From: Phoronis australis
Lineage: Eukaryota > Animalia > Phoronida
Length of the DNA: 64,000 nucleotides
NCBI GenBank assembly: GCA_002633005.1
Contig: NMRA01000680.1
Location: forward strand, 135,913 to 199,912
Direction: 5' to 3'
Positions 1,618-61,906 of this stretch are shown here, in pieces. The notes under the pieces are model-generated. The model ran no database searches. It saw only the letters and a list, made by a program, of their open reading frames with translations, and had not been told where the DNA came from. The stretch's first letter is position 1; every line of letters begins with the position of its first letter. Made by a program: the position numbers and the translations under genes.

Positions 1618-1710
1618 GAGTAATGAACCTTCGGAGTAGTGATTCAGAAACATCAGAGTAGTGAACCGTCGGAGTACATGTACATGTAGTGACCCTTCGG
1701 AATAGTGACA
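1618..1710. repeat. Short ~16-bp minisatellite (gagtagtgaaccttcg-like)
   Basis: 4-5 imperfect copies. A similar degenerate array lies near 22645-22745. Confidence 0.5.
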
Positions 1711-12395: not shown

Positions 12396-12401
12396 TTTAT
12401 T
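12396..12401 (-). promoter_or_regulatory. Candidate polyadenylation signal of the ZP gene
   Basis: TTTATT on + (AATAAA on -) about 290 nt past the stop at 12687. The gene is convergent with the SDR gene. Confidence 0.4.
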
Positions 12402-12686
12402 GTAGTCATTGAGGTTTACTTGCAAGTGATATTTTACAGTTTAAATGGCCAAGATCATTAATTCACTCATTCACTCCAGCTTATTTCGATACTCTATAAT
12501 TGTTTTCAAGTTGCACTCAAAACAAATTCAATATTTCACTCCAGTGTAGTCTAATACGTAAAAATTATTTAAAAATTCTCATTCTCGGCAAAAATGCACA
12601 AAAACTCGAGTTTACTCTATTACTTTCATATACTCAATATTGTTTGGCAAGTTGCACTTCCTAAACGAAAGATAATTAGTTTACGA

Positions 12687-19228: not shown

Positions 19229-19343
19229 CTTGCCCATCGGTACTTTCCCGAGCGTACATTCTGTCCTCATTAATCAAGCATCGGACTCTTTCTTCTGCAT
19301 TGTTCCTTCCCTTTTCTTCACATGTCGTCCATGAGCAGTTAGT
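19229..19343 (-). CDS. Candidate linker exon between the giant gene and the ZP exons
   Basis: ctttctag acceptor and gtacat donor; open frame TNCSWTTCEEKGRNNAEERVRCLINEDRMYARESTDGQ. It starts in phase 0, matching the end of the 20687-20565 exon. Confidence 0.4.
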
Positions 19344-20564: not shown

Positions 20565-23500
20565 TTCTTTCAAACTTTCATGAAGAGCCACCATGGCGAT
20601 CTGGGTGGGATACATCACCTGCTCAGTTAGTTCACGTTTTTTCCTGAAGGCTTGACGTGGCTTCCGCGTAGGTCTGGTATCGCACAACTACAAATAAAAC
20701 AACAATGCATTCATGGCCGCTGTTGCTGGGTTACCGGACAGGAGGTTCGCTAGCCAGGTCATGGATCATGCGAACAGTTTGATTTCCCGACGGTGTATTT
20801 TGACAATGACTTCTGCATTGTCTCTCTATGTGTTCAACATACAAATACAAATAAGCATTCAGCGAATTATTGTCATGTGTGGCAATAGTATAAATCGTTA
20901 ATGTGATACAACCTGTCCAACTACAGTGGTTTTAGTCCAGATCACGTCCTTCCCCAGATTGAAGTCATCACATGAATTACAAGATTCACACAATTCCTTC
21001 CATTCAGTGTCATCTGCAAGTATATAGGCATACAATTTAGGAAACACATTAAACCAACATGTAGCGCATCACTTTTACGAATGCAACCGGTTTCAAAAAA
21101 CTTGTCCAACGTTGAATTCTGTTACGAATCACATGCAGCTGACATTCTATGTTACACTCACTTGTCATTTACAAAAATACGCTGGTCCATATTCAAGAAC
21201 CAAGCTCTTCGTTAGACCATTTACACAGCTGAAAACCTTTTTGGATGTTGCTTACGCGTATCCACTTGATGTCATGGCAAACACCTTCTTTCCATTTACC
21301 TGCCCCTGTTAATAAGACACTAGGCAACATCAGCAAGGAAATACGTACCATGCAGTCGTGACTCGAGTTTGACTAAAAAGCCAAAGCAAGGCACGCTTAA
21401 TAGACCTTAACCGTTGTGAATCGAGTACGTGACTAAAGAAAAAATAGTTTCTGCGTGACTGAGAATTTCAACTATCAAACGCAATGTTTGCCTAAAATGT
21501 AGGGGGGCTCGAATTCTTGAGGACGTGGAACTTTTCCTAACATAATAAAAAACGGGGGAGGAAAAAAAGAAATGGGATACCACGTTCGCAGCTGTGAATT
21601 GTTTGGTCACGCCTTTATAGTGGACTTTTGTATAGTTTTCTCAGATTTTTCGTTCATTTCGCTCAGTGTTTGAAGTCCAGTGTCCGTAAAATGGGGTACG
21701 TTTCTGCGGACGGCCACTTAACAAGTGTGCAGCAGTTTGTTTACGTTAACAGCTTCGCATTTGGTTTACTGCTGTGATAAGTCATCTGGCTGTCTGTGAG
21801 TGAAATGTGCCTGAACATTAGGTTATTTAAACTGTTGCATTATTCTCATTTAATTTTGAAAGTTGATTATGAGTTGTCGACCAGCGGAATGTTCTTGGTC
21901 ACAATCGACTCACATTTGCCAAAGACACGCCTATAAATATCCATAAATAGTTCCATTGCCAAAGCAACACTGTCTGTGACCTGGCATACATATGGTGTCA
22001 TCACCCTGGGTTGTTACCAGTTGTGTAAACCGACTGGATACTAGTGTTCTAATAAACTACCCCTACGGAATGAGTTCAGACACTGAGCGTAATGTTCCTG
22101 TGATTCGGACTTTTTTGCCCCCTTCGCCACACGGGGGTATCGTTCAAGCCCCCCTGGGTGCGCGCATGTACATGGACCGCCAACTTCGTATACTTTCAAT
22201 GGACGAAATATGTGGTCTTTCGCACAAGCCCCGTTAGGTCATTCTGCACTAGCGACACCTGGCCAAATTATCTGGTCTTATATCCGGCTAATCATGGCTG
22301 GCTGTTGTGTGGTCGGGTGGTAGTAGCATTGCTAAAACTACTCACGACATCAACAGTTCTATTGTTGGAAGACTTTGATATGCGCTTCAATCCCGAATTG
22401 TTATATTTTAGTTTTACTGGACTGTGGAATAGATGCAAGAATTTCCCGTAACAATACACTAACCGGAGTATGCACAAGATACTTTAGGAGAGTGGCGCCA
22501 CCTCTAGGAAAGTACACAAAAAGATGTCGGATTTTCGAATATGTTGTCTATAATCTATGGCTTGATATGCATAAAACGTTGCATAGAGACGTCGGATAAT
22601 AGAACCCTAAGACTATAGAAACGTCTACATTTTTATTATTTTCGTACTATTGAACCGTCGCATTTCTGAACCTTCGCGCTGTAGAACCTTTTTGTGTTGC
22701 TTAATGTTTTTTTAAATACTTTGGACTGTTGAAACTTCAGACTAAGGAATTCTTTAATCATTTAGACGCACCCATCTACCATAGCCGTAGCATATTTTCA
22801 AGGTGTATTTTTGATAAGGAGTCGCTCCCCAGCAGGCTGTCCCATTGAATGTTACATCGATAAAGGATTTTGATCCAGGACAGGTAAAGAAACAACGAAC
22901 AAGTGACCTCAAAATCAACGTGTTAGTACTAAACACGCAAAACTCGTCTAACTCCACCAAACGAAATAATGCAGCTCGCAAAGTCGATGATGTTTTCACG
23001 TAAACTTCATGTCGCACAAAACCAGGGAGATTTCAGGCACTAGAAATTTTTAATTTTCAACGAAACTATAAGCCAGACTATGCTATCAAGTGGATGTCCT
23101 TATGTTTCATTAGGTCCCAAAACGGACTGTTGAACAAAAGACCTCAAGGAGACAATGCGAGCCATACAGAGGAGGTACTATCTTACCTGGGTCATAGAAC
23201 ATCAGAGCTGGAATTTGTCCCTCCCTTAAGGCTTCACGATCAAACGGAACGCTGACGTCAATAGGGTGAGAGAGCATTGCATGGTCCTCAATAGGACTGA
23301 TGAAGAACGAAGATCCGGTGTAGTCTTCAAACCTGATTTGAATATTATGATAAATGGATTGAAGTAGCGACTGGAACAACGTTAAAACATTAATGACGTT
23401 AAGTGTATCATTTTCGGGATTAGGCGTCATACTAAAGGAAATCTTTGGCAATCAGAACAACGATATTCTTCCACATCCATATCTATTTCATGCATTTCTT

Positions 23501-26500
23501 GGTTTCTGCAATTAAACAAAATTTCAATCTTAAAGGCAGCACCTTAATTTAATTCCACGAAGATTAATTTTGAACGAATGGCCAACTGGATTTTTTACTA
23601 ATTATTCCTTGTTGATGGCCAGATTAACCAGCTTCAAGTAGGATTTATCATTTTGCATTGTTTTGAAGGGGTTAAGACCCGGCTACTGTAATTAAGCAGC
23701 TGATTTACAAGGACCATAGCTTATGTTTTGACAGTTACTAAAATCGAGTTACCTGCTTTTCAATCGTCTTGAACTCATCGTTTCCTCCCTGCTAGTTTCT
23801 GGATCTTGAATATACTGCTGGAATGTTACGGAAGCAGCGGAGCCGTATCGCGCTTTGACATCGAGTTTGTTTAATGTGCCCGCAATAACGGATGTATTGC
23901 CTGAATAGCAAGAATTGTGACAGAAACCCAGAGTGAACTGCCAATTACAATTTTCCAATTCTTTCAGTTGCTGAATGTGCCATGGTGCCAGGCTAATCAT
24001 GTGCGCTTGATATGGTGTAAAGGTGTCTCAAAGGAGCTCGTGTTCTGCACAATGCAAAACAATTCAATGGTGTTTAATACATGTTTAAACTATAAAAATG
24101 CCTTAGCAAACCGTAAAAAATAATTTTAAACGATTAAGTCAAATTGCTTACAAACGAACCTACCTGTTATTTCGATTGCAATAGGAGGCAAGGTTTTGGC
24201 GGAAAGGTCTGAAGACGGCTGTTCCAAGTTCATAATCGTTGGCTTTTCGACTTCAAGTTTGCGGATTATGTCGCTCTTTCCTAAAAGTAAAGCAAAATAG
24301 TGCATATGTAGTTAGAGAAATTCATGGTGCTACATTTGTTCTGCAGACAGCCAATGGTCAAGGAAATTTCATTCTTGCTTATGAAACCGTAAACCAATCT
24401 CCTTTGGGATTATACAGGTATCATTCAAATTTTCTGGCGGCAGCTTTAACTGTACTTTTGTTCTATGCAATATGTTAAGAATTTTCTTTGCAATTTCAAC
24501 TTCGGATTTTGTGTAACCCAAATCATGTTATCAAATGAACAAACGTACTGGCCACACAAACTTCTCTCGTTGCAATATCAAGCTTTACTTTAGCCCTAGA
24601 AAGAGCAGTCAGTTTCTGGTAAGTGCACCTCCCAGGCTCCATACGGAAAAAGGTATCGCCTGCGTCTTCTGTTTCCGTTGTACTGTTACCTTTAGGCACC
24701 ACCGACAGACTGCAATAGGTAAAGTGTAATGATTTTTGTAGAGTAATAAGGCAATCCTGTGTCGATCATTGAGTGACACTTCTGAGTTGATCAAAAAGGG
24801 AGGCAAACACTGAAATAATATTTACCCATATTAATTTCTATGCGTGAGCAGCTTAGTAACTAAAAGTGCAAGAATGCAAGTTTGGCTGCAACAAAGTCAT
24901 GGATTACATAATCATAATTGATATAGTGACTATTACATTTGCATCTGAAAAATTAAGCAGGACAAATGCTTGACACATGGTTGGTATTCTTGGTAAAGAA
25001 CTTGAATTAGAGGGAAGGCTTACTATTTCTGAAGGGGCCGATGATATCAAAATTTAGTGTTTTCAAAATTATCTATGTCTATGTAAAATTGATACTTGTC
25101 AACAGAGCACCGCAGTGTCCACTATAAAAATATAACGTATATGTACTTAAAGGGAAAAATTAACCTCACTAATGTAACCATATTCTGGAAGAAATAATTA
25201 AGTACTTCATGACAACCGATATGCTCTGCTAAGAAGACAAAGTTTCATTCCCGCTTTTTTCCTGACTATACAATGTATGTTTCCAATAAAGAAGTGACAT
25301 TGTACGAAGATCGTTAATGATGCGTTAAGTTAGATGAAGACCTTCCGAATTACACAATGAATTTTTAAATTAAAAGCGAAAAAATTAATTCCGTATGATT
25401 AGGGGTCTACATTGTCAGCATACTCAGTTGGTCACGCGAGTCTCTATCCTGTTGATGAATCAGCATGGATGTAGAAACAATACCCATTATGATACCTAAG
25501 AGTCTGGTTCATTCCCACATAATGCAGTGTACCGTCCGCAATTTCCACTCCACTAGATGTCTCGCTACCAGCCAGAATGGTAGGCAATATGTCCGAGACG
25601 TCGTTGTGGGAGCCTATTCCCCATTCTGCAAGTTAACGGAAGTCATTAGTAAAGCCATGTCAACATCCTCAGATTTTCTATACGACCTCGAGTTCAACTT
25701 TAGCAGCACAGCTTAGTACACGTCAATTGTCTTGTGCGGCTTTGCATACACCTAGTTAGCTCGAAAAATCTTGTCGGACTAACTGCGCACGCAATCTAAT
25801 TCGGTTGCGTGCAACAGTCGAATACGAAAGTAGACTTCTGTACACGTGGTTCATTAAAAATTCGAAGTGTGTATACAAGGCTAAAAAACACTCGTATCAG
25901 TTGAATGTTTTATGTTAAAAATTAACTTGCAAGGTTCCCATTCTTACTGTGCATAAACAACAATAAGCTAAACTCATTTACAGGATGAGCCTACTAACGA
26001 AATTTGTAGAACATACCGATAGATGCTGAAGTCTTGGTTTTAATTTTCCATCCAATCCCTGTGGTTGTCATGAAATCTGTTATCAGGACTCCTTCAGGTA
26101 AACCTTTGATTGTTCTCGTATTTGGCAACTCAATGCTGATAACTTCAATGTCAGGCGGTTCGAAGTCAGTGGTTACATTACACGAAGATCGGGAGCTTAA
26201 GCCGAGAACGTTAATAGCGTCCACGTTGAACCAGTACCTTTTTCCATGAAAAAAGTCTTTTTTGAATTTGTTCCTTTCAAAAACAAATTCTTTAACAGTA
26301 CCAACACTTTCTCTGGTCACAATGTCATCTAAACCTTCCTCTGAACCCACTGATAATACGTAAGTCGACACGTCTGATTCAACGTCTTCACATTCCCAGT
26401 AGGCCCCGATACCTTCTTTTGAACCAAGATATTCTGTGGGTTCTGCCGTTGAGCCTTTGGGATCCAAACAGAGTACCTGAGTGCATGTAGGCGGTGTAGT

Positions 26501-29500
26501 GTCCACTCGCAACCCGTCACCAACTACTATAACCGAACGTGAAGCAAAATCAACCGCTTTGACGACCAGGTAGTAAATGTTCGGTTGAAAATAGTACTCA
26601 TTTTTGTCCATTGCTGAACGACTTTCCGGAGGCAACAGTTTCATAGATCCAGGTGACAAGGTTAAGTCCACGAGACTAAAGTGGTGCACAATAAAGCCTT
26701 TCAGGCTACATGAGGGATCGCACGTCAAATCGCACGTGCTTTTGCAAGTTGCGCACGGAGTCTTCACTAATGATAACGGATAAACATCGCAACTAACGTT
26801 AGCCTGACTGCTTAGACCTATCCAGAGCTCCTTTATGTTACTGGCTTCATCATGAAACGCTTTACCAAACATACAGGGCTCGTCTCTTTCCAACGCAAGG
26901 GAAACTTCTTCGACAATTGCATTGGTTCTTTTAAGATCGGGAAAATAATCGTTTCTGTTCCAAACGCGAAAACCCACGTTCGCCGACTTCACTTGTTTTA
27001 TTCCGTACAATGTTGCCACCTCCTCGCTAGAAATCATGAGTCTAGTATTCCACCTTTCGAATCCAGTAGACGCATCTTTGTCAAAAACAATGGAATATTT
27101 CATCGAGTTCTCAAAAGGGTTGTGCTCAAGTGTTACCCATTCTTTCATTATTGAATTGTCGACACCTACACCCCAGAACAAGGCAGGGAATTTTCCATTT
27201 CGTTTCCCTCCAATGACATGAAATCCTACAGCAGGTTGGAGATGTACCATTTCTTCTTCAGTTGCGGAATGGTTCCCTTGGATATTGACTGTTGTGTTAG
27301 ACCTTTGGAGATCGGTTGCATTTGACACGCTTGTTCCTGTCGTATTATATGTTGCATGACTCGTGTTCTCAAACACGAAGCTGTAAAACGGCATAAACTT
27401 CTCGTTACTGGACACGTAAAATGTTGTGATGACTTCACTCCCTTCAGCGGCTTTAAATACTGTTGTGTAGGCGCCTTCGAATATGGTGGTGAAAAGTTGG
27501 AAACCAGCGAGAGACATCGCCTTTCCCTCGTCAATGGTTTCGGCTACCAAGACGAGACTTCCGTTGTCGCCCGGATAAGTATTTTCACTGTTATAAAATG
27601 CATATTTCCCGGTGAAATCTTCATCCTTACCAAGAATATTTATGGCATTAGAAACAGTATTACCGACAACAAGATCTACTCGTATATCCGTTTTGCAATC
27701 TGTCTGTTTTATGCCATGGTCTATAGCCACCATCGTGTCGATAGAATGCAAAGACGTTTGAAACAACAACGAATTTGTCCACTCAGAACCATATTTTACA
27801 GAGCCTCCGACTGGCGGTGAATTGTCAACCATTACAGGAACACTCCAGCCAGTTGATGACAAGCCAGCACTGTTGGTGACCTCAACCATGACGTAGTATA
27901 TGGTTGACTGCTGAAGAGATAAGCCTTCGAACAACGTAGCGTTGTCACGTGAGATGCGTACAGGAGATGCAATGTTCAGTAACTGGCTTTCATGAAAAGT
28001 ACGATCACTACACTCGTTTTGTTTATAAACAGACACGTCATAATAGGCAATTCCACTTTCTGTGTCACTGAATTGATCCCATTCAACATAAAGACTGCTT
28101 TTGAGTGGTACAAACGAGATGTGGCCTACTGTGGTGCCATCAATACGAATGTTTCCAACAGACGGTGCTGTCAAATCGATGGTGACAGGAGACGATTGTA
28201 CAAGGAGACAGTGGTCGGCAACATCGTGAGCCACAACAGTTACAAAATATTGAGCTCCGTGCTTTAGCGATAGATTTAAAAATACTGTCACCGTGTCAAG
28301 TCCCACACTTTTCAAAGGAGACGTGTCAAATACTGAATAATTTAGGTTCTTGCAAGAACACGATGTAAGGGACGAAGATAAGCCGACGTCATATCGTAAC
28401 AATGGTATGTGAGTACGGAAACTCGACCACGACGCCTTGAGCGAGAGTATATCCGACTGTGCGCTGTTTACATAGACAGTTCCAGCGGTAATAGAGTTAT
28501 TATACCCCACAAGTATTCCATTGGATGAAACATACACGGTACTTCCTGCAGCACTGTGGGCCAACACTGTCACGTAATATCTCGTCGATATGGCTTGAAG
28601 ATCAAGTTTAGTGAACATGTACTTCGTGCTTAGCCCGACATCAACAAACGAATGTATATTTGCCCTCCCGCTAAAAGTGCTTACGTCATTCCCCACAGCA
28701 ACTTCGTACTTCACAATTAGTTGACTAGGGTTACTACTTTCGTCGTCGCCAAACTTATACCACCTTGCTTGAAGTGTGTCGAGAGGCTGTTGATATTCAA
28801 GATCCATTTCATCTCCATCGATAACTACCCCTGGTTTGGGCGACTCTATGTTTACAGTTACTGTGTTAGTTTTTGCAACCAATGTTCTTTGTAAGCTGTC
28901 CACTATTTCAACTAGAGCGTAATACGTTTTCGTATTTTCCAAGTTCAACTCATCGTTTACCAATACATTTCGTGGACTGGGAACACTAACCATAGGTGCC
29001 ACTACCTGCCCATCAATTCGGTATATACCCCATCTAAGACTTTCTACCGAGCACCCTCCTATCAATGTCCATGAGACACTAACAGACGACAACGACATTT
29101 GGTATCTCAATTCTTGATCATGACTTCCAACAAACGCATGAAACTCAGGAAGCGGACTAACAGTTACGGGTTTACTGACAACTGTGGAAAATAAGCCAAC
29201 CATGTCAAAGGCTCTGACTGTTACGAACACTCGAGACCCAGGCTGTAGAGGACGTTTAGGCGTTAAACTAACGAAATCTTGGAGACCAATGCTAGTTGGA
29301 GAGAGAACGTCTTCTGTGTGTGGCTTAGTTCCTAGCAGAACATCGTATCTACAATGATGATAATACATTTTAAGTGAACATATTCTAATAGGCTGACAGT
29401 GACAGCCGACTTATACTCATGTGATTTACAGTTACAATAAACTCGAGTTCCGTCGATGAAACAAAATTTTGATTTGAACCAATTAATCCAAATGGACTCG

Positions 29501-32500
29501 TCTGCATTTGTTCCCCCTCAGATGAAAAGTAATACGGTAGCACGGCTAAGCTTACCTCTGAAGTCCAGACTGCCGGTCAACGAATCTTGAGATCTGGACG
29601 TTTATTTCGGTCATTGATATCTGGCATGGCGTCTCATCCTCACGTTTCCCACTTACGATTTGTACAGTGCCACCATCAGGCGGTATGTTGTCAACTTTGA
29701 CTTCAGCAGATAGCCAAGTAAACTGATGTAGATAATTGCTCACATTCAAAGTAACATATACGGACGTCAGGGTTGATGTTTCAAGAACATGGTGCATATT
29801 AAATGTGCGCTTGTTGTTAATCGCGCTGCTTGGCGAAAACTGTATCAGATTATCAAATCCTTCCTGTTCCCCAACCCCAACAGCTAATTCGGAGATGAAA
29901 CTCTCGTGTTCGTCTACCGCCCACTCACACGTGATCAGGGACTCCAACGGCGATACGTAGTCATTGCAACTCAAAGAAATTATCTTAGGTTCAGTTGCAT
30001 CAATCGTGAGTGGCGGCCAAGTTTTCTCAGCTAAATTGCCTGCTGCATCCATTGCCTCAACAGTCAAAAACCCTGTCTGCGAGTTGTTGATCGATAAATC
30101 GCCAGTAGGCAGCAGCATATTTACGGCGACAGTTTCTGCTTGAAAGTCCCTTTTTCCAGGAAGAGAACCATAGTGCCAAATTTGATGCGCAACATCCGAT
30201 TCTTTGTCGGTACAATTCCAGGAATAGAGGCTCGTGTCAAAGTACTGGAGGTAGATGGCAGTTTTTTCATGTACATTAACAGTAATTTGAGGTGGCTCGG
30301 CATCGACAATAACGCCATCAGATGAGGAAACGATGAATTCCTCAGGGCAGCCATGCCCAGTAATAGCTCTGACTGTGCCATAATACACGTGGTTGGTACT
30401 CAGTCTGATGTTGGATTGCGCTATTCCCGATGTTTCATTTTCCATCACAATGCCGTACGTTGAAAAGCCTTGTATATCTGAAAATCCTGGCTCTGATCCA
30501 ATAGCCCATTCATAAGCAACTATTCCACACGCTTCACTTTCAAAGCCGTGGAAGTTGATGGCAAACGAAGACAAGTCATGCTGGTAGTTATCGTCCATTC
30601 CAAAATTTCGACCATCGAAAATTACTCCAGGAACATTGTCTTTCACGACAAATATTGGTTTTGAAGATATTGGATCAGAGACCAACCCAGCACCGTTTAC
30701 GCTTTTCACCGTGACGTAATAGAGTACGTGTGATATACTCCACGGCTGCAAATCTAGACCACTGATGTGGCCGTGCATAGCTACCCCAAAGTCTCTGAAG
30801 CCACCGGATATCGAATCATCTCCTTCATTGACTCCTACAGCCACTTGGTAAGATACTATTCCACTGTGGTCGTCGTGTCCATGCCAAGAGGCTAGGATGC
30901 GATTCTGCTCCAGGTGCTCAACTTGTCCGTTGTCGTTCACCACTTCCTCGTCCAGTGACAGACCCACGATAACCTGAAGTTAAATCACTTGGACTATTAC
31001 GATAAACGTACTTGACACATACAAAAACACAGAAACGGTATCAAACATTAATCAACACTGAACAGCATTCATTGTTTTTCAACAAAATTTAGTCATTCAG
31101 AAATTAAAATGTGGCGTAACATCACCATCAGCACTGCTTTTACTGACAAATGTCACAAAAAACACTCGAGCGGTAATTTTAGGAGTAACAACTTCATTTT
31201 GTAAGCCAGGGTTTCGAGGGCAAATTAGCGTGTGGACTAATTTAAACACCACCAAATGTATAAAAGCATCCACTTCAAATCAAAGGCAAGTTTCGCGAAA
31301 CTTTCAGGCCGAACTCTGCTAAATTAAGACCATTCTGATTTAGCCTGCAGTAGTTTCAGAAAATTACTTGAGGCAAAAACCGGTCTTAGTTAAGACCGGG
31401 ATTAGCTTGCTACGGAGTAGCCTCTGATAGGTTTCCGGGCGTAATGAATTGCTGTGATCGTTGATACTTTTGCAGTTGATAAAACGAAGCGCATATTTTA
31501 AGTGACATTATTCTAAGAACAGGACAAGATGAAAAAAGAGCCACCAACCGGATAAATGAAATGCTGCTAAAATTTAAGATAGTAGATACTAACGCTGTCC
31601 ATTTCAGGAGCAGTGGTGTCAACGCGAACGCCATCTGACTCGTGTGTAGTAGAGAGCTGTGCGTGATTGATTGCCGTTACTTTAACGGTATAACGGGCGC
31701 CGTCTATGAGTTCCATTGACATCGTGGTGTTCATTGGCTCCAGACCACCAGAGGGCAGCACAATGTCATCCTTTTGAACGGGCCATATTTTAGACTTGTG
31801 ACCTTGGTAATCCATAAACACAGACACTCGGTATTGTGCTACTCCGGACTCCGAATCTTCAAATTTCCACTTGGCAAATATGCTGTCATCCTGTGTCTGA
31901 TAAAGTAGCCCGTTTTCGCTGTCCACTAATAATATCAAAATAGGTGGAGACAAATCCACGGCATATCCATCAGACTTAACCTTCGTAATGCTACCTGCTC
32001 CATTCTTCGCACCAACTTCTATATTCACACGATCGCCATTTTCCAAAGCCATCGAATGCTCTTCAAATTTTGTTGACAACCCATTTGTAAACGATTTTCG
32101 GAGTTCTTTATTAACGTACACGTTGACGATGTACTGCGCTATGTCACTTTCTAAGTCCTTAAAGCCTTCAAAATGAGCAGTGATTTCTGACTGTTTGTGT
32201 GTGTAAGCAATGTCCTTTCCAGCCTCCTTGCCGTCTTTAATCCAACCTTTTTCAGGAGGGGTGATGTCAATCAAAACTGAAAGGGTGACGACACATTTTA
32301 CAATTACTTAAGTGGCATACAGCGCGATGACAAATATAGACCCTAATTGCTGTCGGCAAAATGGAATATCGTGACAATTAAATGCCACATTTTCAGCTAA
32401 CTTAGTGACCTTGAAGGATAGATTTTCCACAAATCATAAAGAGTAAAAAGGCAAACGAGCAGAAATTATCGTTATCTAACCTGGTCCTTTTTCTAAAAAT

Positions 32501-50500: not shown

Positions 50501-53500
50501 ACAACTGAAGAACCATCTGCTCAAATGAACCTCGAGGTTCAGTCTTCTTCGCTCGTAGCATACTTCGAAGTTTGCTTGGGCTGAACGTCATGGGGTGTTG
50601 GATGGGTTGGTCTTGAAGAGTTGCAGAGAATTCGGCCACTAAATCCATCAGTCTCATCTTCGTGTCAAGTTGACCTCCATCCTCTAAAATCTTGCTTATT
50701 TTGGCCAGCGTGAATTTGTTGACATTGAACGCGTCCAAAATATTTGGTGGGCGCCTAAAACACAACAGTTGTCGATCAAAATACAATTGCAAATCAGCAC
50801 TAAATTTACCGAAGTAGCTGATCAAACAGTGTAAGGCATATGACAATAACAAAGCATCATAACGAGAGATGGCGGAAGTACAAGTAAAATTAAATGGGTC
50901 AGACGTAAGAAACAGAAGCGCATACCGCTTACCTGTCATTTTTGGAGGACATGGCATTATCTTTAAAATTTTTAAGTTTTCCCATAGTTGTCAAAATTTC
51001 AACTGTGCTCTTTTTCTCCTCTTCAATTGTTTCTTCAAGATTTGTTTTCGCCTTTTTCATCAAATCTTCAACTCCATTTTTTGCCAATTTCTTGAAAGAC
51101 GAAATCTTCTTAGATACTTTAGATTTCAATTTTCCAGATATGGATTTGAAAAAGTTCGAAGTTTTAGGTTTTTTGGTGTTTTTACTACGACTTTTGTTTT
51201 TTCTCTGTTTCCAAGCTTTCTTTGCTTTCTTCAATAGCTTTTTGGGCAGGCCAAAGCGCTTTTTGGCAACCGTTTGTCCTATGAATTCGAAAGACAATTC
51301 GTTACAATGCTCCGTCCAGCGTGGGAAGGGAACCAGTCTTTCCACAAATGGAGTCGGGTCCACGTATTTGTAATCGTCGTCNTCTCTTTCTTGTGCTTCC
51401 ACTTCGCAGTCTTGGAAAGTTTTCGTGTGACAAGATGTATAAACTTCAGGTTGCATTCCGATTTCATGGAAAATCCGATCACCTCTCCTTCCCCAAGAGT
51501 CACTCCGTCGTTGGTGATATTTTCGTGTGGTAAAATATTTGAAATGATGATTTCGTATTTTTTGAAGTTTGCGTCTTCCGGATATATTACGACTTCATGG
51601 TTGTTTTTTCTTTTGACACAACCAACTACCGGACTAACAATCTGGAAATAAAATTGCAGCCTCAGAATTGCTACCAGAATAGTCACAGCTACCGCTAGGC
51701 GATAAGAAATGAATAGTGACAAAACGTTGTGTTGTGGCAATTATCTGATAAAGAACTGGGGCGTTGCAAACACCATAGCACGCAAAAGAGATGTTTACAT
51801 AGAAGTTGACAGTTCATGCTATTGTTCACTTGTTGACTATCACGCAGCAATGGCAACAGTTCCGATCTTAATTCCAGAATAGTCTAAAGTAGACCAAAAC
51901 TGATTTGGACATTCTACATTCATCTACACCGAAAAAGCACCGATGTAGAAACATTTCCATTAGTAAAATATTGTGAGTTTTTATTTTTAACTGTACGAAG
52001 GTGGTAGTCTGCCATTTAGGTTGGCAAATTCACAAATCGGTCTAAAGCAATGCTTTTGTCGTTGTGAATGTTTAAAAGTGCGACTGATGACAACCGACTG
52101 GCAGTCCGTCATTGTGTTTCTCGGAAGGCTTTCCAGCCTCTTCACAGAGGCAGAAGCTCCGTTTTGCGACACATGTTTAATCAATAATTATAGAAAGAAT
52201 CTTGGCGGCGATGTATAGTTTTACATGTGGATAAAAGTTGCCAGAGGCAAAAAGATTGTTAGAAGTGTTACAAGCTTGACTGGAAGTAACCCACGAACTG
52301 CCAATGATGCCTTCACAGCAAAACTCAAGCTCAGTCGGTATGGGAGAAGAAGGACCAACAATATAATCTCGCCTTTAAGGTTTGCAAATGAGCACTCATC
52401 TTGTAAGAAACAGCCTATACGTCAACGAAGATTAAATCAATGGTATGTTCTTAAATAGCGCAATTGTTCTTGCAAGTTTGCTGATCTTACTAAACTATGC
52501 AAGCGGACGTCGGAACGTGAATGTAATGTTACCACCTTTTTACCGTGTACTAGCAATGCATGACTGGAATGTTAAATAATGTAACTTCTTAATTTCCATG
52601 ATACAAGAAACGACTGCGGCGACCAAGAGATAGTGAAAAACAATCAACTCACCTTGCCGTCTCTTGGCGCCTCAACATCAATACCTTTAAGCCCGTTGAT
52701 TGATTTTGAACCAAATACGCCATCAGCGCATCTGTGGACGTCGGGGTCGACACGGCGTGTAGGAAACTGAGCATTGAACTTGGGTCCAAAGGCCTTTCGT
52801 ATTAGAGACCTGGTTTTATCAACCCTAAAAAAGACGTACCCGTGGCGGTGCGCTAACTGAGCAGTGTGAATTTACACAAAGTACATGTAATACTATGCAA
52901 ACTAAATTAAACCAAGTTGATATACAAGTATGTAATATGCCACTCATCGTACAAGAAAAGATCTAGATTTGATTATGCTGGGTTCTGACGACATGCTAAC
53001 ACTGCGTTCTATTGTTAAAAGAAGCCGTTAGCCAGATGTTACCGCATACTTACACAGTTTTCAATTCCATGTATGAATTCTTGATACTGCGGATTGCGTC
53101 AAAAACTGATGTGTAAGCCTCAACAAAGGGATCACCTAATTCAGCTAACTCGTCCAATGGGTTGAGTGTGTCTTTCAGTATCTGGAGAAACCTTGAGACA
53201 ATTTCTGCTTCTTGTTCTTCCTAAATAAAAGACCAATGCAACCACTATTATCACACAGCGTGATTCCTTTTGTGGCTTCCCCGTGATAAGTTCGATCTTC
53301 GTTTGGGATGAAATTAAAGAACGACCAGAATGCCTGAAATCGTTTTCGCATTATAACCCAGTTCTTATTCCCTGTTTTATATACACCCATATTTGGGATC
53401 ATTCAAACATAACAGTCAATGAAGACACAATCGATGATCGGATCGCATCCAGTCACAGGTTACGCCTAGCGAGTCACTTGTAGAGAATTTAAAACGTTCA

Positions 53501-56500
53501 ATTGATTACAAATTCTTATAATTGGGTATGTTTTCACGCAATCCAGACTTTATAGCGTAGTTTTGATTTATTACATACACTCACAATGTTGTGTTGCTAT
53601 TGAATTTTCAATTTTTTAGGTTGACCGAGTCAAAAGGGCGGCGATTAGGCTACGGGTTGCAACATTTGAAGGCGACTTATTTTGAAAATTGAGTTTCTAA
53701 TATAAAGTTTTCAATGAAGTTGATTATAATTGCTTTGAACGAAAAGATCAAGCTGATATGTGTTGTAAAGTTTCCAAGTATTTTGCACCAAATTAAACGG
53801 CCTATTGTCGCCTATACCAATAGGGGAAACACACACACTCGACAGCTACCCGTATTCAAATCGCGTAGCATTCGCACCTGCAGCTTCAAAAAGACATGAA
53901 TGCAAAGTTCCTAACATTAAAGTTTTTGTATCAAGCAAATTAATCTTTATAATAAACATTGTGAAATTGCTGATAACAATTCAACCGAATTTGTTTTTCC
54001 GACCGTTTCGACGGCCCCAGTCACACTCCCGGGGATTCCCATACATACGGGCCCGTATTAAAATATGTGCTAAGTAATTGAATAACAAATTTTAAAGGTA
54101 CTGATTTTGATCAATTTTAATATTAACTGATATGAAATGAAAAATTAATGTGTTTCCTTGATTTTCCACGTATTTTGCACTAAGTTAAATGGCCAGTCAT
54201 CGCTGATTCTAATACTGTGGAGACACGGTGACAGCCAAATTCGTGGTAACGATGACGTCATAGACTTCCATTGGCGCGAGCGCCGTCTCAATTTTTTTGG
54301 CGCTAAATGGTTTTCGTGATGGGGCTACTGTATTGTCGAAGGCCTACTTCATTAACGACTGGGGTATGCTATGACACAGTATTTTGATGTTTTTCATCAA
54401 TAAATGTATTTTAGATGTAAAAATAGTCATTTTGGCAACATACTTGGCCTTTAACTTCAGCTGTTAAAGGTCAAGTGTGTTGCCAAAATGACTGGGAGTA
54501 CGTGCAGTTGCGACACCAATTTGTCAATCATAACCTTGTCACCTTCTCAGGATTCCGGCATTACTTGGTTGGCCTGTGTTTGGTTGTTTTAGTGTATTGC
54601 AGACGATAAAATGTAAGGCGTACTTAGCACTGCTTTGTGATTGGCCCATGTAATACAAACATAACGTATTCGGTGTTATTACCCAGTCGTGTCGTCACAC
54701 ATACCCGGTCATGTGAGAATAGGTATTTACGAGGTGTTTTTGGAAGCTACATGTTATTATATGTTCCAAGAGCGCACTATTGGTGGTTGAGGCAACTGGG
54801 GACAAGCAAAAAGGACCAAGGGCAGTTCGTGTAAAACTTCGAAAGCAAAAAGTACGGAGAGGCAAAATTTTTTTATTTTACATAAGGAACAGGTTAGGAA
54901 TGACTGAAAAAATTATTATCAAGTCAGTTTTTGGAGAGGTGCAATATGGCTGTTACAGCGTCCCAAATTTGGCCGAAAATGGCTTCAGTAAAAACCTTCA
55001 AAATAGCCGTTTTTGCCATACAAACCAAATAATACAAAGTTAAAAATGAATGTTGAAAGTAGTGCCGTTAAATTGTTCAATCAACGTCCTTTTAAACCGT
55101 GTCACTAATTTGTTATCAGCTTACTACACATGCTTGTAAAATCCTTTCAAATACGTTTACTTCGACACCCAATTTTGTTGTAAAATGGAGATATAGGTCA
55201 TAAAAAGAGATATAATGAAGGAAAGGCCTTAAAAAGCGAGATTTTTCTACATCCCACCCAACCAAACTCGTGTACTAAGTCTAAAAAAGTCTGTGATTTT
55301 GGGTATAGACTCTACTTGTTAGTTTTTATACCGAGTCATTTTTAAATAATTGGATGACATATTTTCACGGGGGAAAGTGAAGAAGTATTTGTAATGGAAA
55401 TTCTTTGGAGAACAGCAACGATGTTTTTTCTTGGTTAGATTCGTTCGCGACCCGGGATTTTCGCGAAATTGCTTTTGTAGACTTGGCATTAAGCTAACCA
55501 TTGCGCTTTGTGAGGTATGCCAAATCCTATGTTAAAAGTACATAGAACTCCATAGTTTTCGCTACGAGGTTTCTTTTCCTTTACCTGTGTAAGTATTCCG
55601 TCATTTAGCCCAACCTGTTTGTCGTGAAGTCCAGTCTTACTTGATCTTATTCTTTTGGATACGGCTGACACTTCGACGAAAGTAGCATTTATTTCATTCA
55701 CAAGGTAAAACAACTCGTCGCCTGGGTTCATCCAGTAGGGTTTTTGACCTGCATGGAAATGATGAAAAAAATCAATGTCGCCATTTGAAAACTCGATTTT
55801 GCGAAACTACCTAAATGCTCATCTCGCAAATTACTTCACCCAAAAACATTATTTGTGGTACTAAATTAGGACACAAACTAGACGTTTCTTTCATAGCGAT
55901 TGAACCTGGTTTCCATTTTCTATCCGTTAGTGTTGCAAAACAATCGTAGACAAACTAAAAGTACTTACCATTTAAAAAGAAACAATTTTCTTGTATTTGC
56001 TGTTTCGCTCCAATCAACAATGCAATTGACGTCTTAATACTGGAAGAACATACAACCAGACAACATATCGAATCGTTATTACAGGGTGTCACATTGAAGA
56101 ACGAAACTGTTGGCCACAGCTTTGAGTTCGACACGGGGCGCATTCCCATATCGGTATATTTTAACATTTGAAATTTCAATCTGGAACCATGATATTCAAA
56201 CTACTGTTGATTAACTTGCTTTACAGTTTCATAGACCCCTATTTCACAAAAATACCATTGGAAATATGACGTCACAAATTACATGGAATACCCTACACAC
56301 GGTTTGCTTTTTGAGCTTTTTATCGAAGTTTTAACCCAGAAATACATGAATTCTGGTAAAAAGTTGTTTTCCCGATCAATGCATTTTTCGAAAATTAACT
56401 TCTTTGTCTGTTTCTTCTTCGAAGCTCCCGTCGATGCAATTTAGATGTTCATTCAGTCCTCTGGGAAAATGAAGCTGTCAAGCTCAACAGCTTTTTTGGA

Positions 56501-59500
56501 GATCCAGTGAGCTGGGCGATGTCGGGGATGTCGAATTCGGGCAGTTCTGCAGTAAATGTTCAGGTGTCTGGAGGTGAGTGTCATACGGACTTCTTTTGCT
56601 GGTCTAGTTGTTATACATATATATTCTTCTTCAGTCCCTAGATTTAGGCATTCATTCCGGGCATTTCTCAATTGGCTTTGTAGGAAGTTCTTTGCTTCCC
56701 AATAAGATGATAATTTGCCTTAGAGAGTGTGGTTCTGCTTCCTCGTGGCCGCTGATACCGCAGTGGGAGGGAATCCATTGCAGCAAAACAGTGATTTTGC
56801 TGCTCGTAATGTGCAACCACTTTTGGCAAAAACGCATGCTCACGTGTTTACGGGAACTGTGTGTCACCAGTTACTTAGAAAGAAGTCTAATTAGGGGTAC
56901 ACGTATTCATAGTAGTTTTCTATTCTCAATTTATCCAGGAGTTAAAAGTTGGACACGTCTTCATTAGCACCACCTACTGGAAGAGGAAATAGGAGTACAT
57001 GTACGTGCATCAAATAGGAACTGGATCCAATCTACAAGTGATGATCATGTTAATGACAACTACAGACAGGAATAACGGTTCTTACTTGATTACTGCTCGA
57101 ATAATAGTTGAAATGGCCTCCTTGGGATTCACAGAAAGCTGTTGAACCATGGTTACGATGTCTTCAATTGCATCCAGAATCCGCTGAATTGCAAACGGCA
57201 ACGTCACGGTTACAGCATCCACGACACTCTGAAAAAGTTAAATACGCAGACGAAATTGTATAGACTTATGTCAAAAAACTACGTCGTAGTGCTCGACGCT
57301 TAGCATGACGGGAAGCTGCATATGGTGACTTGGCAAAATCCGTGTTAGCGAAAACGCACGCAATGGTTGTCGACAAAAACGCCATTACCTTTTCCGGTCT
57401 CAGAATATGCCGCATGGTTCTTCAATTTCTCCAGTAAAATAAGCACCATTCAACCTCTAATTCACTTCCTCCTCTACCAGCGACGCACGCAAACTATCGG
57501 AAGTGCGTTTCATGGTGCGATCTTGTCGATTTTTGCCGAGCAATTTCGATTTCATCCATTTAATTAAAAAGGTAATAAATCCAAGAAAATTGTTATTAAC
57601 TTAAAGTTCGGAAGCCACCACAAATTTTGAAAAGAATATGGGGAATAATTGTCTAATGCTGATACTCGCTGCGACGACTTCGTGGCGTCTTGGCATTTTT
57701 CCTGGTCGTCAAGCAGAATCTGAAATCTCATTGGCGGCTTACAGGTGGCCAAATTGAGCACTGCACGGTATATTGTTCTTGGTCCTACATTCAAAATGTG
57801 TTTTTCTGGTCTGCATTACATGCATTCGGAACGCCTGCAAACTTGCGTTCAATTCTAAAAAAGAATTTATGATTTAGACCACTTGCCGCATAAGTCTAGT
57901 CTCAACTACAGTAGCTCGTTAGTCAGGTGAGAACTGACTCTTATCATTCGTTGAGAGCATGCTGGACGCCTACAATGACTAGCAACTTGTAGAGTGACCA
58001 GTTTAACTACTGTAAGCAAAAATCTGATAACCGAATTCCATGGCTGTAAGTCGTCTATTCCATACTGTTTTGTGACGGAAGCCCGGTTTATAGCCGATTT
58101 CAAGGTCCCATGCATATTACCTTACGGTTGCAGGAGTGAAGACAAGGCGTACATCAATAATGCGCTGTTATCTTAAAATTGTTTCGTAATTGGCACATAG
58201 GTACACTTAAGGGACATTACTGGTTTTAGATCAAAAGATTTTGGTATCACTGTTAGATAGAAATACTTGTTGAAGTACTGTAAGTGGCTTTGACCAGATA
58301 AATAAAACATCAAAAAATTTTATCAAGTGTTCTTCGCTGCGGGCACCTGGGTTGCGTATATGTCAAAACAAACTATCGGGACTTGTTGAATTCGTCACAA
58401 GTTTTTAACATTTTTACTCCAGAAAACCGAATTTTAGAACAAATCTTGTTGCTGCGAAGCTGTAAGGAGCGAGCTGTTTTTGAAACGGCCGCCCACACTT
58501 CTTTGTTACAAAAAGTGGCGAAATTATGCTAGAAAATGAAGTTTATTTAATTGATTTCCTCTTAAGCGGCTGCAACGAACAAGGTGAGTGTCGGTTGACT
58601 ACTAGATCTTGCATACACCCTCGCCGGTCCGTTAGCTTTACATGTTGATGTAGCCTTAGTTTTTACGACGAAGTAACGGGCATAAGTCAACTATACCCGG
58701 GTATTCAACGGGCTGTGTGGAATTTCCCTGTCTAACGGAGCTCAACACTCAGTGGCACGATAGCCTTCATACAGCTGAAGTCGGTAGCTAACCAACCTTT
58801 CAAGTTTACAGGGATGAGTATTGGCTGGCAGGTGGTTGGCTGAAGTCCACATTGCCCACGACAGCGACACACCAGTGTAAATTGTTGATATGGACTGGTT
58901 GCACAGGCAAATTTTCGCCTGACGATGACGACGACTGGGTATCACTTTGTATTGCCTTGGCTTTAACAGGTATCCCTGTTGACTCGAAATTTCACACTAA
59001 AATTTTTTATTCCAACAATATGAAGAACGCCACTTGACTGCACGCTAACACAGGACAGTGACTTTGCGCCCACCAAATACGTCACGAGAAGCAGCGCTCC
59101 AAGCGGTAATTTTTTAGCTTCGTTAGAGAATATTTAAGTTTACTTTAGATGTTGAATTATTGGTGAAATTAAACAACAACTCATAGAAAACTATCCAAAT
59201 TTTATTCAGAATACAATACAGTTCCCTTTTAAAGCAATGTCATTGAAATACACTTAAAGCGTTTGTACTTAACGGGTAGGATTGTGGTCAGTGGCAAATC
59301 TTTCGGCTGCTTTTGGCGAATTAATAGGTTACGTTTATTGCATCTGCTAATTTCTACAAATTTCTTTTCTCGCCGAAAATGTCCCCATAAACAACATACT
59401 TACGTTTAATACTTACATTATAAAAGTCAACAATATCGCCCTTGACATCCTCAACAAAGTGCTTTACGCGGTAAATGACTTTCTTCACTGCTTCTATCCA

Positions 59501-61906
59501 AGGCAATTTGCCGTAATCACTTACGATCTTGGCAAACTTAATAATGTTCTCAACTATTTCTTTCAGTTTCCGAGGAAGTCCTTTGACGACATCAACGAGT
59601 TTACTGATTAGGCTGCGTAACCCTCCATCTAGAAGTACCAGCAAACAGCGTTAATTGTAATGCGACAGGGACACTGAAAACAAGACAAGACTACAGTCAA
59701 CGAGTTCTGAACACACCTGCATCCACGGTGCGGCAAGGGGAGAAAAAGCCACCACCTCGTAAAATGCCNACGTTATGTATTTGAAAGTCCAAAAATAGGT
59801 TGTTGTCTCGTTGAATATTGGATAAGTTTTTGCGATTTCCTTTAGTTCTGTATCCTTCGCAGTTGGTGTGGTGAACTTAGGCAAGCATTCGTCCAAAAGT
59901 GCACGTACTTACACATTCATTGGAGCTTTAAGACTGTTTCAGTGGCATTTACACAAGCATGTGATAAACTATTTACCCCCCAAACAACCATCCGAAATTT
60001 GTAGATAAGTGCATTATGATACATAGGACATGGACAAACATGTATTGCGTATATTAGTGATACTATTTCACGCAGTGTCCGTTACTGTTAACGAGAGACA
60101 GCAGACGACATGTTTGCGATTGTTTTGTCCGGGTCTCGCAAAAGTCATGTAGCGTCAGTTTTTCTCTTTAGTAGAAAAACAAAAAAGGTTATGTCACGAG
60201 GGAAATTACAATAGTACAGAGCGATAATGTGTCAATTTCTCCGTGTGTCAAACTATCGCAGGACATTTGGATGGTGTGGCGGAATGGGCCAGTCTCCAAG
60301 AGCGGGTCAGTTATTAAGACAGGGTACTGTTGGCTGTTGATTCACAAGTGTTGGATTGGAATTTTTTACAAGGCAAATTTTACAACTTTTATTTCACGGG
60401 TATGGGAAGAAGTATCCAGGTGACACATTGACATTGGAAATATGGGTTATATCTGGAACAGTATAATAGTAATACTAAACACATGAATACAAGCCCGCGC
60501 ACAAACGTACACAAACGCGTGCACACTAAGGAGCACGCGCACGTGTACGCGTGGACACGCACGCACACACACACCAACACAAACACACCTAAACATTCCT
60601 TTTATAATTGCAGAACAAACACTCAGATGATAAATGTTGCCGCACCTCAAGAGTATCGCTTGATGATTCCGCTAGGAAGAACTGACACGACAAAAATGAA
60701 GTTTTGTTAGGCTTGACAACACCATTTTAACAGACAATCGAAAGTTCATCAGTTCTATCATCAATATACCTGGAGTTGACATTTTGTGCTTAGACTTCTA
60801 CATGCATGGTGACACCACGAACATGATGAATTGCACTTTTATCGGCATAGAACTCGACACAACGTGCTTTTCCCAGAGGTAGAGTTTCGTCTCTGAGGAT
60901 CACGCCCAGACATGCTTACCTCGAGTTAGCACTTATCTTAATTTTCAAGTCGAGCAGACACACTGGACTTACCTTTAACAAATTCCATCACTTTTTGAAA
61001 TGCCTCGATAGTTTTGCTTATGGGGTCCACCACGTTGTCATGTAATTTGTCAAAAATAGTTGCCAGTTGTGAGATGTCATTGATGCCAAAATCCTGTAAA
61101 ATTTATGACGAAAGTGTGCCTTTGTTAATCGCTTGAATTTGGGTGCAAATGCAAATGTATTAAAATGAGTGTAGATAAGCTGTCACAAGGGAGTAACACA
61201 GCTTACCTTCAATATGTTTAGGTTGTAGCTTATATCACCACGGTAACACGCCTTGGCGCGGAAGATGTCGAATTCCCAATTCATGAATCCAACCAATCCC
61301 TGAACATATGCTTCGTTGTCGATATCAACCTCAAAAAATCCCGAAAGTGGCTCTAAAAATACAGTAACTATACCAGTGAGAATTCTGAGGAAAAAATCGT
61401 ATGGGTTCAACTCAGTTATTCGTATTAGCTCAGTTGTTGGTATAAATCTGTTTTAATTTCAACACAATTTAATGTGAATGATGGCGGGATGCAATTTTGC
61501 TGTATTTAGGACATTGCAGTCTGTCCGCCAGACGCGTTGCGTCCCATTGCAAGATATTGAGATCTTGTTAAAGTGCGTCTGGATTTTGAAGGGGTTTTTA
61601 GTCAATGCACATCTTTCGTAACGAGATATCTCTGATGTGTGAGTCCTGAAAGACATTTGTAAAGTTAACGCAGTTCCTGTTTCATGTACTGCACAGTATG
61701 GCTCCAAAGTCTGCTTTCTCTTACTTAGTTGCAGTCTCACGCCATTGCGTATGTTTAGACCAAAACTTGCGCCAATGGCTCTCGAGCCGATCTTTTTAGA
61801 CCATTCAACGCCCGGTAGGTAAACTTTGAAACTCAGTGCTTTAAACAGTCTTGCCAAAAACCGCCTTTTTCTACTCTTCATAAGAAGGGGGTAGGTGTAT
61901 GACTTC
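20565..61906 (-). CDS. Giant multidomain extracellular protein (M23/LECT2-like, PAN/apple, FN3/Ig-like repeats, GH16-like insert); 5' end not located
   Basis: Exons in transcript order: 61906-61725, 61352-61207, 61093-60973, 59628-59417, 57228-57086, 56039-55969, 55748-55585, 53181-53054, 52824-52653, 51641-50933, 50754-50483, 49945-49742, (48709-48701), 47063-46854, 45987-45845, 44426-44261, 43090-43020, 42361-42204, 41964-40810, 40362-40268, 37891-37358, 33861-33684, 33247-33063, 32276-31594, 30973-29556, 29348-26017, 25625-25496, 24709-24549, 24280-24164, 23900-23753, 23332-23187, 21013-20913, 20687-20565. All are GT-AG and phase-consistent, except a 1-nt deficit at the N at 51382. Confidence 0.85.
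21495..21660 (+). repeat. Dispersed repeat shared with 48215-48390
   Basis: cctaaaat.tagggggg?ctcgaatt...gtgga.cttt...gtggacttttgt..agttttctc.ga is present at both loci. Confidence 0.55.
26017..29348 (-). CDS. 3.3-kb exon of the giant gene: FN3/Ig-like repeats with a GH16-like insert
   Basis: 1124-aa ORF with repeated W..F.D.ESGI..Y.V.VG, L..G..YYVTV.A.N.AG and D.TPP motifs. Acceptor cattgtag at 29349, donor gtatgt at 26016. Confidence 0.9.
29556..30973 (-). CDS. Exon of the giant gene, FN3/Ig-like repeats
   Basis: 471-aa ORF (ASWHGHDDHSGIVSYQVAVG, YYVTVKSVNGAGL, SSDGVIVDAEPP); ttcag acceptor and gtaagc donor. Confidence 0.9.
31594..32276 (-). CDS. Exon of the giant gene, two FN3/Ig-like repeats
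   Basis: IDITPP...FKDLESDIAQY...KNGAG...SDGYAVDLSPP...FEDSESGVAQY...SDGVRVDTTAP; canonical splice sites. Confidence 0.88.
33303..33435. repeat. Purine-rich (GA) low-complexity tract
   Basis: gagagagacagggacagtgagagggaggagaagggg...; a similar tract lies at 43287-43357. Confidence 0.6.
34371..35240. mobile_element. Non-autonomous TIR element with candidate 8-bp TSD
   Basis: TIR gattgttctaaaaccccctcgacc / ggtcgagggggtttagaacaatc with subterminal cctcgaccc/cccacga repeats. Flanks tatgttag (34363-34370) and tatattag (35241-35248) match at 7/8. Confidence 0.75.
35636..37160. mobile_element. Helentron-associated (HINE-like) element with internal ~430-bp tandem repeats
   Basis: Terminal acaagag plus hairpin caacgc-gga-gcgttg; subterminal inverted repeats atgcgcccac (35660) / gtgggcgcat (37147); 3' hairpin cccacat-ataaac-atgtggg; about 3 copies of a unit containing gatacagaggtaaacgtaaa and aagatcctgcaa..ggtttagga.ataca. 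Confidence 0.65.
37358..37891 (-). CDS. Exon of the giant gene, FN3-like repeats
   Basis: GHWDGFEDKETGIWGYTWAAG...YFVTVQAINN...VIDTVKP...DHLSGVSRVDFGLG; 534 nt, phase 1 to phase 1. Confidence 0.85.
38813..40041 (+). mobile_element. Diverged second copy of the 4668-6312 element
   Basis: Collinear shared blocks (ttagatcga...ctcgataactgc; gcatgcgctcac.cggcct.ggtgccc; ggatatagaccgattaagacg...taaatcgggtggcatt), TTAA at both ends, internal CA/TA microsatellite at 39410-39497. Confidence 0.75.
40587..40748. mobile_element. Small hAT-like MITE
   Basis: TIR cagtgctgtagtg / cactacagcacta; flanks atattact / attttact (7/8 match, 8-bp TSD); internal gtaggcgc/gcgcctac motifs. Confidence 0.65.
40810..41964 (-). 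CDS. Exon of the giant gene containing a PAN/apple domain and the first FN3-like repeats
   Basis: LICAAECIKFETKCISFDYNPQSEQCLL fits the PAN C...C....C.SF.Y.....C.L pattern; also VVDFTPPEPG. Confidence 0.85.
46704..46790. repeat. (ACC/ACT)n degenerate trinucleotide repeat
   Basis: accactacactaccacaacac...accaccaccgctgccgccaccaccactacaact; intronic. Confidence 0.55.
47681..47748 (+). repeat. ~65-bp mini-TIR element, one of at least four copies
   Basis: catgggcggcgca...ctgaaaaa...agcccc...ggtgcaccgcccat. Further copies at 49489-49558 and 49559-49627 (tandem) and inverted at 17587-17644. Confidence 0.65.
49489..49627 (+). repeat. Tandem pair of the ~65-bp mini-TIR element
   Basis: Two adjacent copies, each starting tgggcggcgcagcactg and ending ggtgcac. 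Confidence 0.65.
50933..52824 (-). CDS. Two exons encoding a degenerate peptidase M23/LECT2-like domain and a polybasic tract
   Basis: HRCADGVFG...LKGIDVEAPRDGK|IVSPVVG...LGEGEVIGF...FIHL...YVDPTPFV parallels the LECT2 elements GCGQY...HQGVD...VYAPFTG...KGEKLG...HVH...DPTAYL. Confidence 0.7.
54425..54493. repeat. Near-perfect inverted repeat (31-bp arms, 7-nt loop)
   Basis: agtcattttggcaacatacttggcctttaac-ttcagct-gttaaaggtcaagtgtgttgccaaaatgact; 29/31 Watson-Crick pairs. Confidence 0.85.
56490..56840 (-). mobile_element. Degenerate non-LTR retrotransposon 3' fragment (RNase H plus C-terminal zinc-knuckle region)
   Basis: VLLQWIPSHCGISGHEEAE matches the RNase H motif W.PSH.GI.GNE.AD of I-group LINEs. 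In another frame QTPEHLLQNCP matches the end of the CCHC knuckle. Frameshifted and internally deleted. Confidence 0.75.
60497..60590. repeat. (CA/CG)n degenerate microsatellite
   Basis: gcgcacaaacgtacacaaacgcgtgcacac...cacgcacacacacaccaacacaaacacac. Confidence 0.6.

Follow-up and report, generated by a model that had tools for sequence, protein, structure and literature searches.

What kind of protein is encoded by a giant gene that unites the folds of two microbial cell-wall enzymes, M23 and GH16, with a long series of FN3-like repeats? The question is raised by a 64,000-nucleotide stretch of the phoronid Phoronis australis (assembly GCA_002633005.1, contig NMRA01000680.1, positions 135,913 to 199,912), hereafter called the window. 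A preliminary description of this DNA, made from its letters alone, placed the gene between 20565 and 61906 and proposed a secreted, multivalent recognition or barrier protein. The present analysis points to a different kind of molecule, since that description had missed a lipid-transfer-type head, a transmembrane anchor, furin-type sites and a ZP-like base, which together indicate a type I membrane protein of the vitellogenin/apoB superfamily. The full protein is predicted from its sequence to be a single-pass, membrane-anchored chain of about 4,900 residues, and the membrane-anchored architecture is considered very probable. Unless a plus sign is given, coordinates are window positions on the minus strand, and residues (aa) are those of the gene model.

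Extent, frame and expression of the gene

The gene model, built by six-frame translation, tblastn using seven relatives and splice-site scoring, describes an intron-rich minus-strand gene of 42 GT-AG exons that runs from 63999 to 12688 and comprises 4,409 codons with no stop within. It is colinear with residues 509-4369 of the Haliotis protein P0004, at 32% identity. Between the limits first proposed lie 32 GT-AG exons and 3,940 codons (61906..20565), in good agreement with the earlier estimate of about 33 exons and 3,900 residues. The limits themselves were wrong, because RNA joints at 62476/61905 and 20565/19343 carry the gene beyond both of them. Upstream of 61906, the exons 62607-62477 and 63999-63928 match the end of the Vitellogenin_N domain of the relatives, which implies that about 500 residues at the 5′ end lie outside the window. 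Downstream of 20565, the joint is in frame (11+4+2 reads) and eight further exons lead to a transmembrane helix and a stop at 12690. Splice score and phase led to the acceptors 59673, 55806, 18113 and 15716 being dropped for 59628, 55748, 18129 and 15696.

The claim of one phase-consistent frame fails at one place, where a one-base frame change is needed between about 51425 and a single N at 51382, just after the equivalent of the M23 HxH motif. The break, at or just before this N, is read as X. The N is one of only two in the 64 kb, and no other break occurs in the 4,409 codons. The break may stem from a gap at the N or from a short A-run just upstream of it, and is likely an artefact. The second single N, at 59769, is intronic in the model and leaves the frame unaffected.

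The gene is expressed as spliced minus-strand RNA. Reads of two stranded RNA runs that bear the same species label fall on the exons in the expected orientation, and a third run is almost empty; among indexed runs, none recorded as RNA contained the stretch. Mapping covered 12001-32000 and 44001-64000, with eight introns in 32000-44300 falling outside the mapped stretches. Among the joints listed, at least 14 of the 17 modelled introns in the first stretch were seen as CT..AC joints and at least 2 of the 16 in the second, where the listing was crowded by repeats, giving listed joints for at least 16 of 41 introns in total. Differences between reads and assembly numbered 77; 35 of the 40 listed were exonic, 22 synonymous and 13 not, and in the ZP-like, transmembrane and tail exons 13 of the 20 listed were synonymous. 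Exon depth in run X4 across 12001-32000 was near zero, whereas X2 and X3, from the same study, reached about 5-20, by which expression appears to be sample- or tissue-restricted. Intronic repeats at 48200-48425, 49490-49600, 58900-59230, 14940-14993 and 22168-22319 attract reads from elsewhere on both strands.

A probable lipid-transfer-type head shared with marine relatives

Similar giant proteins do exist in marine invertebrates, as the preliminary description had suggested. A collection made with the largest exon as query contained 67 proteins of 1,968-5,000 aa, and ten proteins align as members of the family: those of Mytilus, Saccostrea, two Haliotis, Littorina, Lingula, Owenia and three Branchiostoma. 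The relatives carry the label 'uncharacterised'. At least one non-FN3 region profile is matched by 17 of the 71 proteins tested; the repeat type alone is shared by 54, including bacterial, cnidarian, echinoderm and sponge proteins. In the tree the gene model groups with Lingula (98/96) on a branch flagged as long, and because of this long branch no firm taxon is drawn. The unnamed ENA protein P0021 (4,013 aa) has the end of the helical domain, both sheets and the FN3 repeats as in the gene, but its helical insert is of much greater length and neither M23 nor GH16 is matched; it is possibly a sister architecture. Metagenome scans yielded no relative. Literature searches on the family or the domain combination, with supplementary tables and subscription journals outside their scope, found no paper; every single domain is already known, and the combination was not found in the literature searched. 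A coral 'vitellogenin-like' skeletal protein was rejected, its architecture being a different one as far as its description goes (PMC4890752).

The assignment of the head comes from the relatives. Vitellogenin_N (PF01347) scores above the Pfam cutoff of 24 bits in P0004, P0068 and P0006 (45.8, 44.1 and 34.4 bits), and the match in P0004 spans residues 280-558. By alignment to P0004 from residue 509, the gene model begins with the 80 or so residues that close the Vitellogenin_N helical domain (aa 1-79, 61873..63999). They are followed by a furin-type site, RKRR (aa 80-83, 61861..61872), whose motif (R-x-[KR]-R) recurs at the corresponding position in all three relatives that reach it, and by a first amphipathic beta-sheet (aa 85-178, 61091..61857; strand moment 1.45 versus 1.02 in an FN3 control), which from its position is likely the C-sheet of a lipid-transfer module. 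An amphipathic helical region of about 290 aa comes next (aa 185-470, 52824..61072; helix moment 1.43 versus 0.73 in the FN3 control). A second amphipathic sheet, conserved in relatives, lies much further along (aa 1060-1215, 41835..44369; strand moment 1.49, mean hydropathy 0.5) and is a candidate for a displaced A-sheet of the lipid pocket. No VWD domain was found in Pfam scans of the relatives or of the window exons; thus, with a transmembrane helix present, the gene departs from vitellogenin proper, which is a soluble yolk precursor with a C-terminal VWD.

Two enzyme folds, an FN3 stalk and a membrane-proximal base

The domain order given in the preliminary description is borne out by the sheet and helix moments, the PAN score, the basic tract and the FN3-like repeats, and its two enzyme folds have also held up. 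The LECT2-like M23 domain (aa 478-650, 51274..52802) was recognised by motif alignment and with support from the relatives, and it is in the relatives that the presence of an M23/LytM fold is supported, by sequence. The family profile for this region found LECT2 (5B0H, E ~0.0025) and SpoIIQ (3UZ0, E 0.06) as its best PDB matches, the Atlas score for the relatives' region was 0.93 with M23 among the top three clusters, and PF01551 appeared below the cutoff in two of six relatives (E 0.0076 and 0.0074); the window exons alone gave no M23 match in profile scans. The M23 motifs are Hx3D and HxH (PMC9662197). In the window they read L..D and F.H, the first zinc His having become Leu and the catalytic His Phe. 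Both motifs are intact in one of five relatives, Littorina P0006 (~1014-1140), a sequence-based candidate for an active animal M23 peptidase, and the first His, at least, is gone from each of the other four. The claim that both enzyme folds are dead probably holds for this gene, where catalytic residues are absent, and does not extend to the Littorina M23. A polybasic tract follows (aa 651-725, 51049..51273; 29 K/R versus 2 D/E in 75 aa), and then a Cys-rich domain that fits no named family (aa 853-992, 46855..50489) and is found in seven of the ten aligned relatives.

The stalk is an array of about 18-20 FN3-like modules (aa ~1230-3830, 24177..41792), in which Pfam fn3 is weak and below its cutoff. 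A self-built hidden Markov model recovers 16 repeats at i-E<1e-6, 13 of them used in building it, in keeping with the more than ten repeats first noticed. One module houses a PAN/apple domain (aa 1398-1475, 41055..41288; PF00024, E 3.1e-5, 24.2 bits versus a cutoff of 21.4). Another carries, between two invariant Cys, a GH16-fold domain without catalytic acids (aa 3139-3413, 26873..27697). The GH16-type beta-jelly-roll fold of this insert is confirmed, by a fold prediction that rests on a checked alignment; the insert has no Pfam or PDB sequence match, an Atlas search with it returned leads below 0.9 only, and a viral fold search gave generic FN3 and GH16 matches only. The GH16 consensus consists of two catalytic glutamates with an aspartate between them (PMC6403176). 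At the three putative catalytic columns, on a strand assigned from secondary-structure order and not from coordinates, Asp and Glu are absent in 11 of 11 rows, with Gly at the middle column in nine of 11. The gene holds one M23 and one GH16 copy, so that 'multivalent' does not describe it.

The stalk ends in a conserved domain (aa 3835-4003, 20577..24164; in nine of ten aligned relatives), which looks ZU5/GPS-like by eye and has no profile match. A furin-type site, RKKR (aa 3981-3984, 20634..20645), precedes the last strand of this domain; the motif is strict in seven of the nine relatives that have the region, and likeness to the relatives ends right after the domain. The next 320 or so residues (aa 4008-4330, 12927..19343) probably form an egg-coat-type (ZP) module, as suggested by Cys spacing, RNA joints and synonymous differences. 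The spacings C2-C3, C3-C4, C4-[C5], [C5]-C6, [C7]-CA and CB-C8 are 23, 35, 67, 18, 5 and 5, compared with 19, 32, 66, 18, 5 and 5 in the reference (PMC7456536); C1-C2 (63 versus 28) and C6-[C7] (54 versus 37) are longer, and Leu occupies both the Cys5 and the Cys7 positions. The pattern, picked after viewing the sequence, arises in 63 of 5000 shuffles, and in 4 of 5000 with a Cys-Pro added. A representative search with the last ZP-like exon gave 11 matches that were rejected as an artefact of weak summed repeat matches (nine of 11 Calx-beta, best stretch 14.5 bits). A transmembrane helix follows (aa 4337-4359, 12840..12908; 2.69, the top 19-residue hydropathy of the model), and then a 50-residue cytoplasmic tail and the stop (12688..12839). 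Nine of ten relatives have a transmembrane helix and three of nine an NPxY tail. The latter, endocytosis-type motifs lie in the cytoplasmic tails of P0004, P0068 and P0011, and the tail of the gene has a Pro-x-Tyr with Gly for Asn that resembles them.

Elsewhere in the window, a short-chain dehydrogenase, retinol-dehydrogenase-like by eye, lies at 3646-10920 (+) and runs convergently towards the giant gene's 3′ end; two of its exons match adh_short (E 5e-7 and 0.003). Upstream of it, at 2330-2593, degenerate tandem repeats of 20 bp form two oppositely oriented blocks. Within introns of the giant gene there are a 433-bp tandem repeat (35911-36968; 2.4 copies, 77% match) and an open frame (56655-56870, minus strand) which by eye is like the RNase H remnant of a long interspersed nuclear element and has no Pfam match.

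Possible functions and known systems

On present sequence evidence, the most likely reading, though a tentative one with somewhat less than an even chance of being right, is that of a surface protein whose lipid-carrier head, held on an FN3 arm, would capture lipid-rich particles, the M23, PAN and GH16 modules making contacts without catalysis; the capture role as such is possible without being probable. The N-terminus beyond the window would consist of a signal peptide and Vitellogenin_N, as in the relatives, and a head of the vitellogenin/apoB type would be held far from the cell on its stalk. The two amphipathic sheets may form a lipid pocket around the inserted helical, M23 and Cys-rich block. 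Furin would cut at two places, behind the helical domain and close to the membrane, leaving the pieces joined or shedding the outer part, and the M23, PAN and GH16 modules may make protein or glycan contacts. The ZP-like base would link the Phoronis version into an apical extracellular matrix, replacing the cadherin-like/EGF stalk of the relatives, and the captured particles might be lipoproteins or microbial envelopes.

Several observations weigh against this reading. The Vitellogenin_N head itself lies outside the window, which covers, by alignment to the relatives, the last 50 or so residues alone of the PF01347 match; that match falls partly within HEAT-like helices, where HEAT_2 also scores, and it is absent in three of the six relatives of alignment A2, because their models start downstream. 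PDB searches with three queries did not return lipovitellin, MTP or apoB, and a complex prediction joining the Haliotis head (270-700) with its sheet 2 (1500-1680), computed without alignments, scored 0.01. The ZP-like exons taken singly (37-74 aa) have no profile or PDB match, the tail of the gene has no strict NPxY or YxxL motif, 25 of the 41 introns are inferred, three of them within the ZP-like part, and the frame is broken at 51382.

A pattern-recognition receptor, in which the dead M23 would bind peptidoglycan and the dead GH16 beta-glucan so that microbes are tethered for clearance, is judged from the sequence to be distinctly unlikely. Both folds are present and non-catalytic here, dead GH16 proteins serve as insect immune receptors (PMC6403176), the DUF1943 domain of a crab vitellogenin binds bacteria (PMC7949091), and the later part of the GH16 domain has a Trp-Asn pair conserved in 10 of 11 and nine of 11 rows. 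However, each domain occurs once, a 41-residue low-confidence loop with five N-glycan sequons directly precedes the putative GH16 catalytic strand, and the relatives differ widely in the columns of the preceding strand. Further, ligand binding does not follow from a dead fold, because degenerate M23 domains function mostly in contacts between proteins (PMC9662197) and insect glucan-recognition proteins acquired a separate N-terminal recognition region (PMC6403176). Rather unlikely, too, is a structural matrix protein, whose ectodomain would be shed by furin into mucus, cuticle or egg coat, with the ZP-like base as scaffold and the head as yolk-like lipid cargo or a relic. The conserved furin-type site near the membrane, the 34 N-glycan sequons of the model, the near-absence of signal in one of three RNA runs, suggestive of restricted expression, and the ZP-like base fit such a role, as ZP proteins build apical matrices (PMC7665627). 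Polymerising ZP proteins, however, use a furin site before the hydrophobic patch, and this site and an aromatic residue after Cys4 have been linked to polymerisation (PMC4755741, PMC7665627); the model has two R-x-[KR]-R sites only, none of them between the ZP-C-like part and the next hydrophobic patch, and no aromatic after Cys4. The low read depth (~5-20) also speaks against it, and the NPxY tails of three of nine relatives point to uptake. That the gene is broken or mis-joined, with a real frame break or with ZP-like exons belonging to a neighbouring gene, is highly improbable. The frame break, the long terminal branch and the absence of three ZP-region joints among those listed would agree with it, but the break coincides with one of the two Ns and is the only one, RNA joins 20565 to 19343 in frame, synonymous changes are in excess among the read differences, and no signal-peptide-like start is seen by eye before the ZP-like part.

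The capture reading can be carried further, to a version that we regard as doubtful: animals would possess an undescribed, membrane-anchored branch of the large lipid transfer proteins, with its pocket split round a LECT2-like domain and a stalk of about 20 FN3 modules bearing a bacterial-lichenase-like pseudoenzyme. As a receptor, such a protein would take lipid from seawater particles or microbes; in the Phoronis lineage the cadherin/EGF base would have been swapped for ZP exactly at the conserved furin site, and some members, such as that of Littorina, may keep an active M23 peptidoglycan hydrolase. A single-pass form conserved across molluscs, brachiopods, annelids and lancelets would extend the superfamily by a receptor-like branch, and would point to the cell surface as a place where marine animals may take up lipid or microbes. 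Within the family, an animal M23 site occurs in natural on and off variants, which bear on the loss of activity in LECT2; a cleavage site also marks what looks like a clean exchange of domains, and all parts of the protein are accessible as isolated domains.

To our knowledge, the known large lipid transfer proteins (vitellogenin, MTP and apoB) are soluble lipid carriers. Like members of this superfamily (vitellogenin/lipovitellin, the MTP large subunit, apoB and apolipophorin; PF01347), the relatives begin with Vitellogenin_N, followed by a furin-type site and amphipathic sheets and helices. They differ in having M23, PAN, an FN3 array, a GH16 fold and a transmembrane anchor, with no VWD found, and in the gene the two amphipathic sheets lie about 880 residues apart and have no PDB match. 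With LECT2 and the degenerate M23/LytM proteins SpoIIQ, EnvC and NlpD the gene shares the loss of the catalytic His, whereas here the domain sits within a membrane protein of giant size and lacks the first zinc His as well, and the Littorina relative retains both motifs. Identity to GH16 lichenases/laminarinases and to insect betaGRP/GNBP is 14%; in contrast to these, the present GH16 domain is nested in an FN3 module, has a long glycosylated loop and shows no betaGRP N-terminal domain. The ZP-like base resembles ZP proteins that lack Cys5-Cys7, Drosophila NompA and C. elegans CUTL-28, in its four-Cys N part, Leu at Cys5/Cys7, the retention of Cys6/A/B/8 and the transmembrane helix that follows, and these two proteins also have PAN domains upstream (PMC7456536). 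The likeness is one of pattern alone; the gene is without a furin site after ZP-C and its PAN domain lies 2,500 residues upstream. Also comparable are the giant proteins of Haliotis (LOC124277142), Littorina, Mytilus, Saccostrea, Lingula, Owenia and Branchiostoma, which are colinear with the gene at 28-39% identity up to the membrane-proximal furin site; beyond it they continue with cadherin-like (Big_9), EGF and transmembrane modules, and the Phoronis gene has the ZP-like module in their place.
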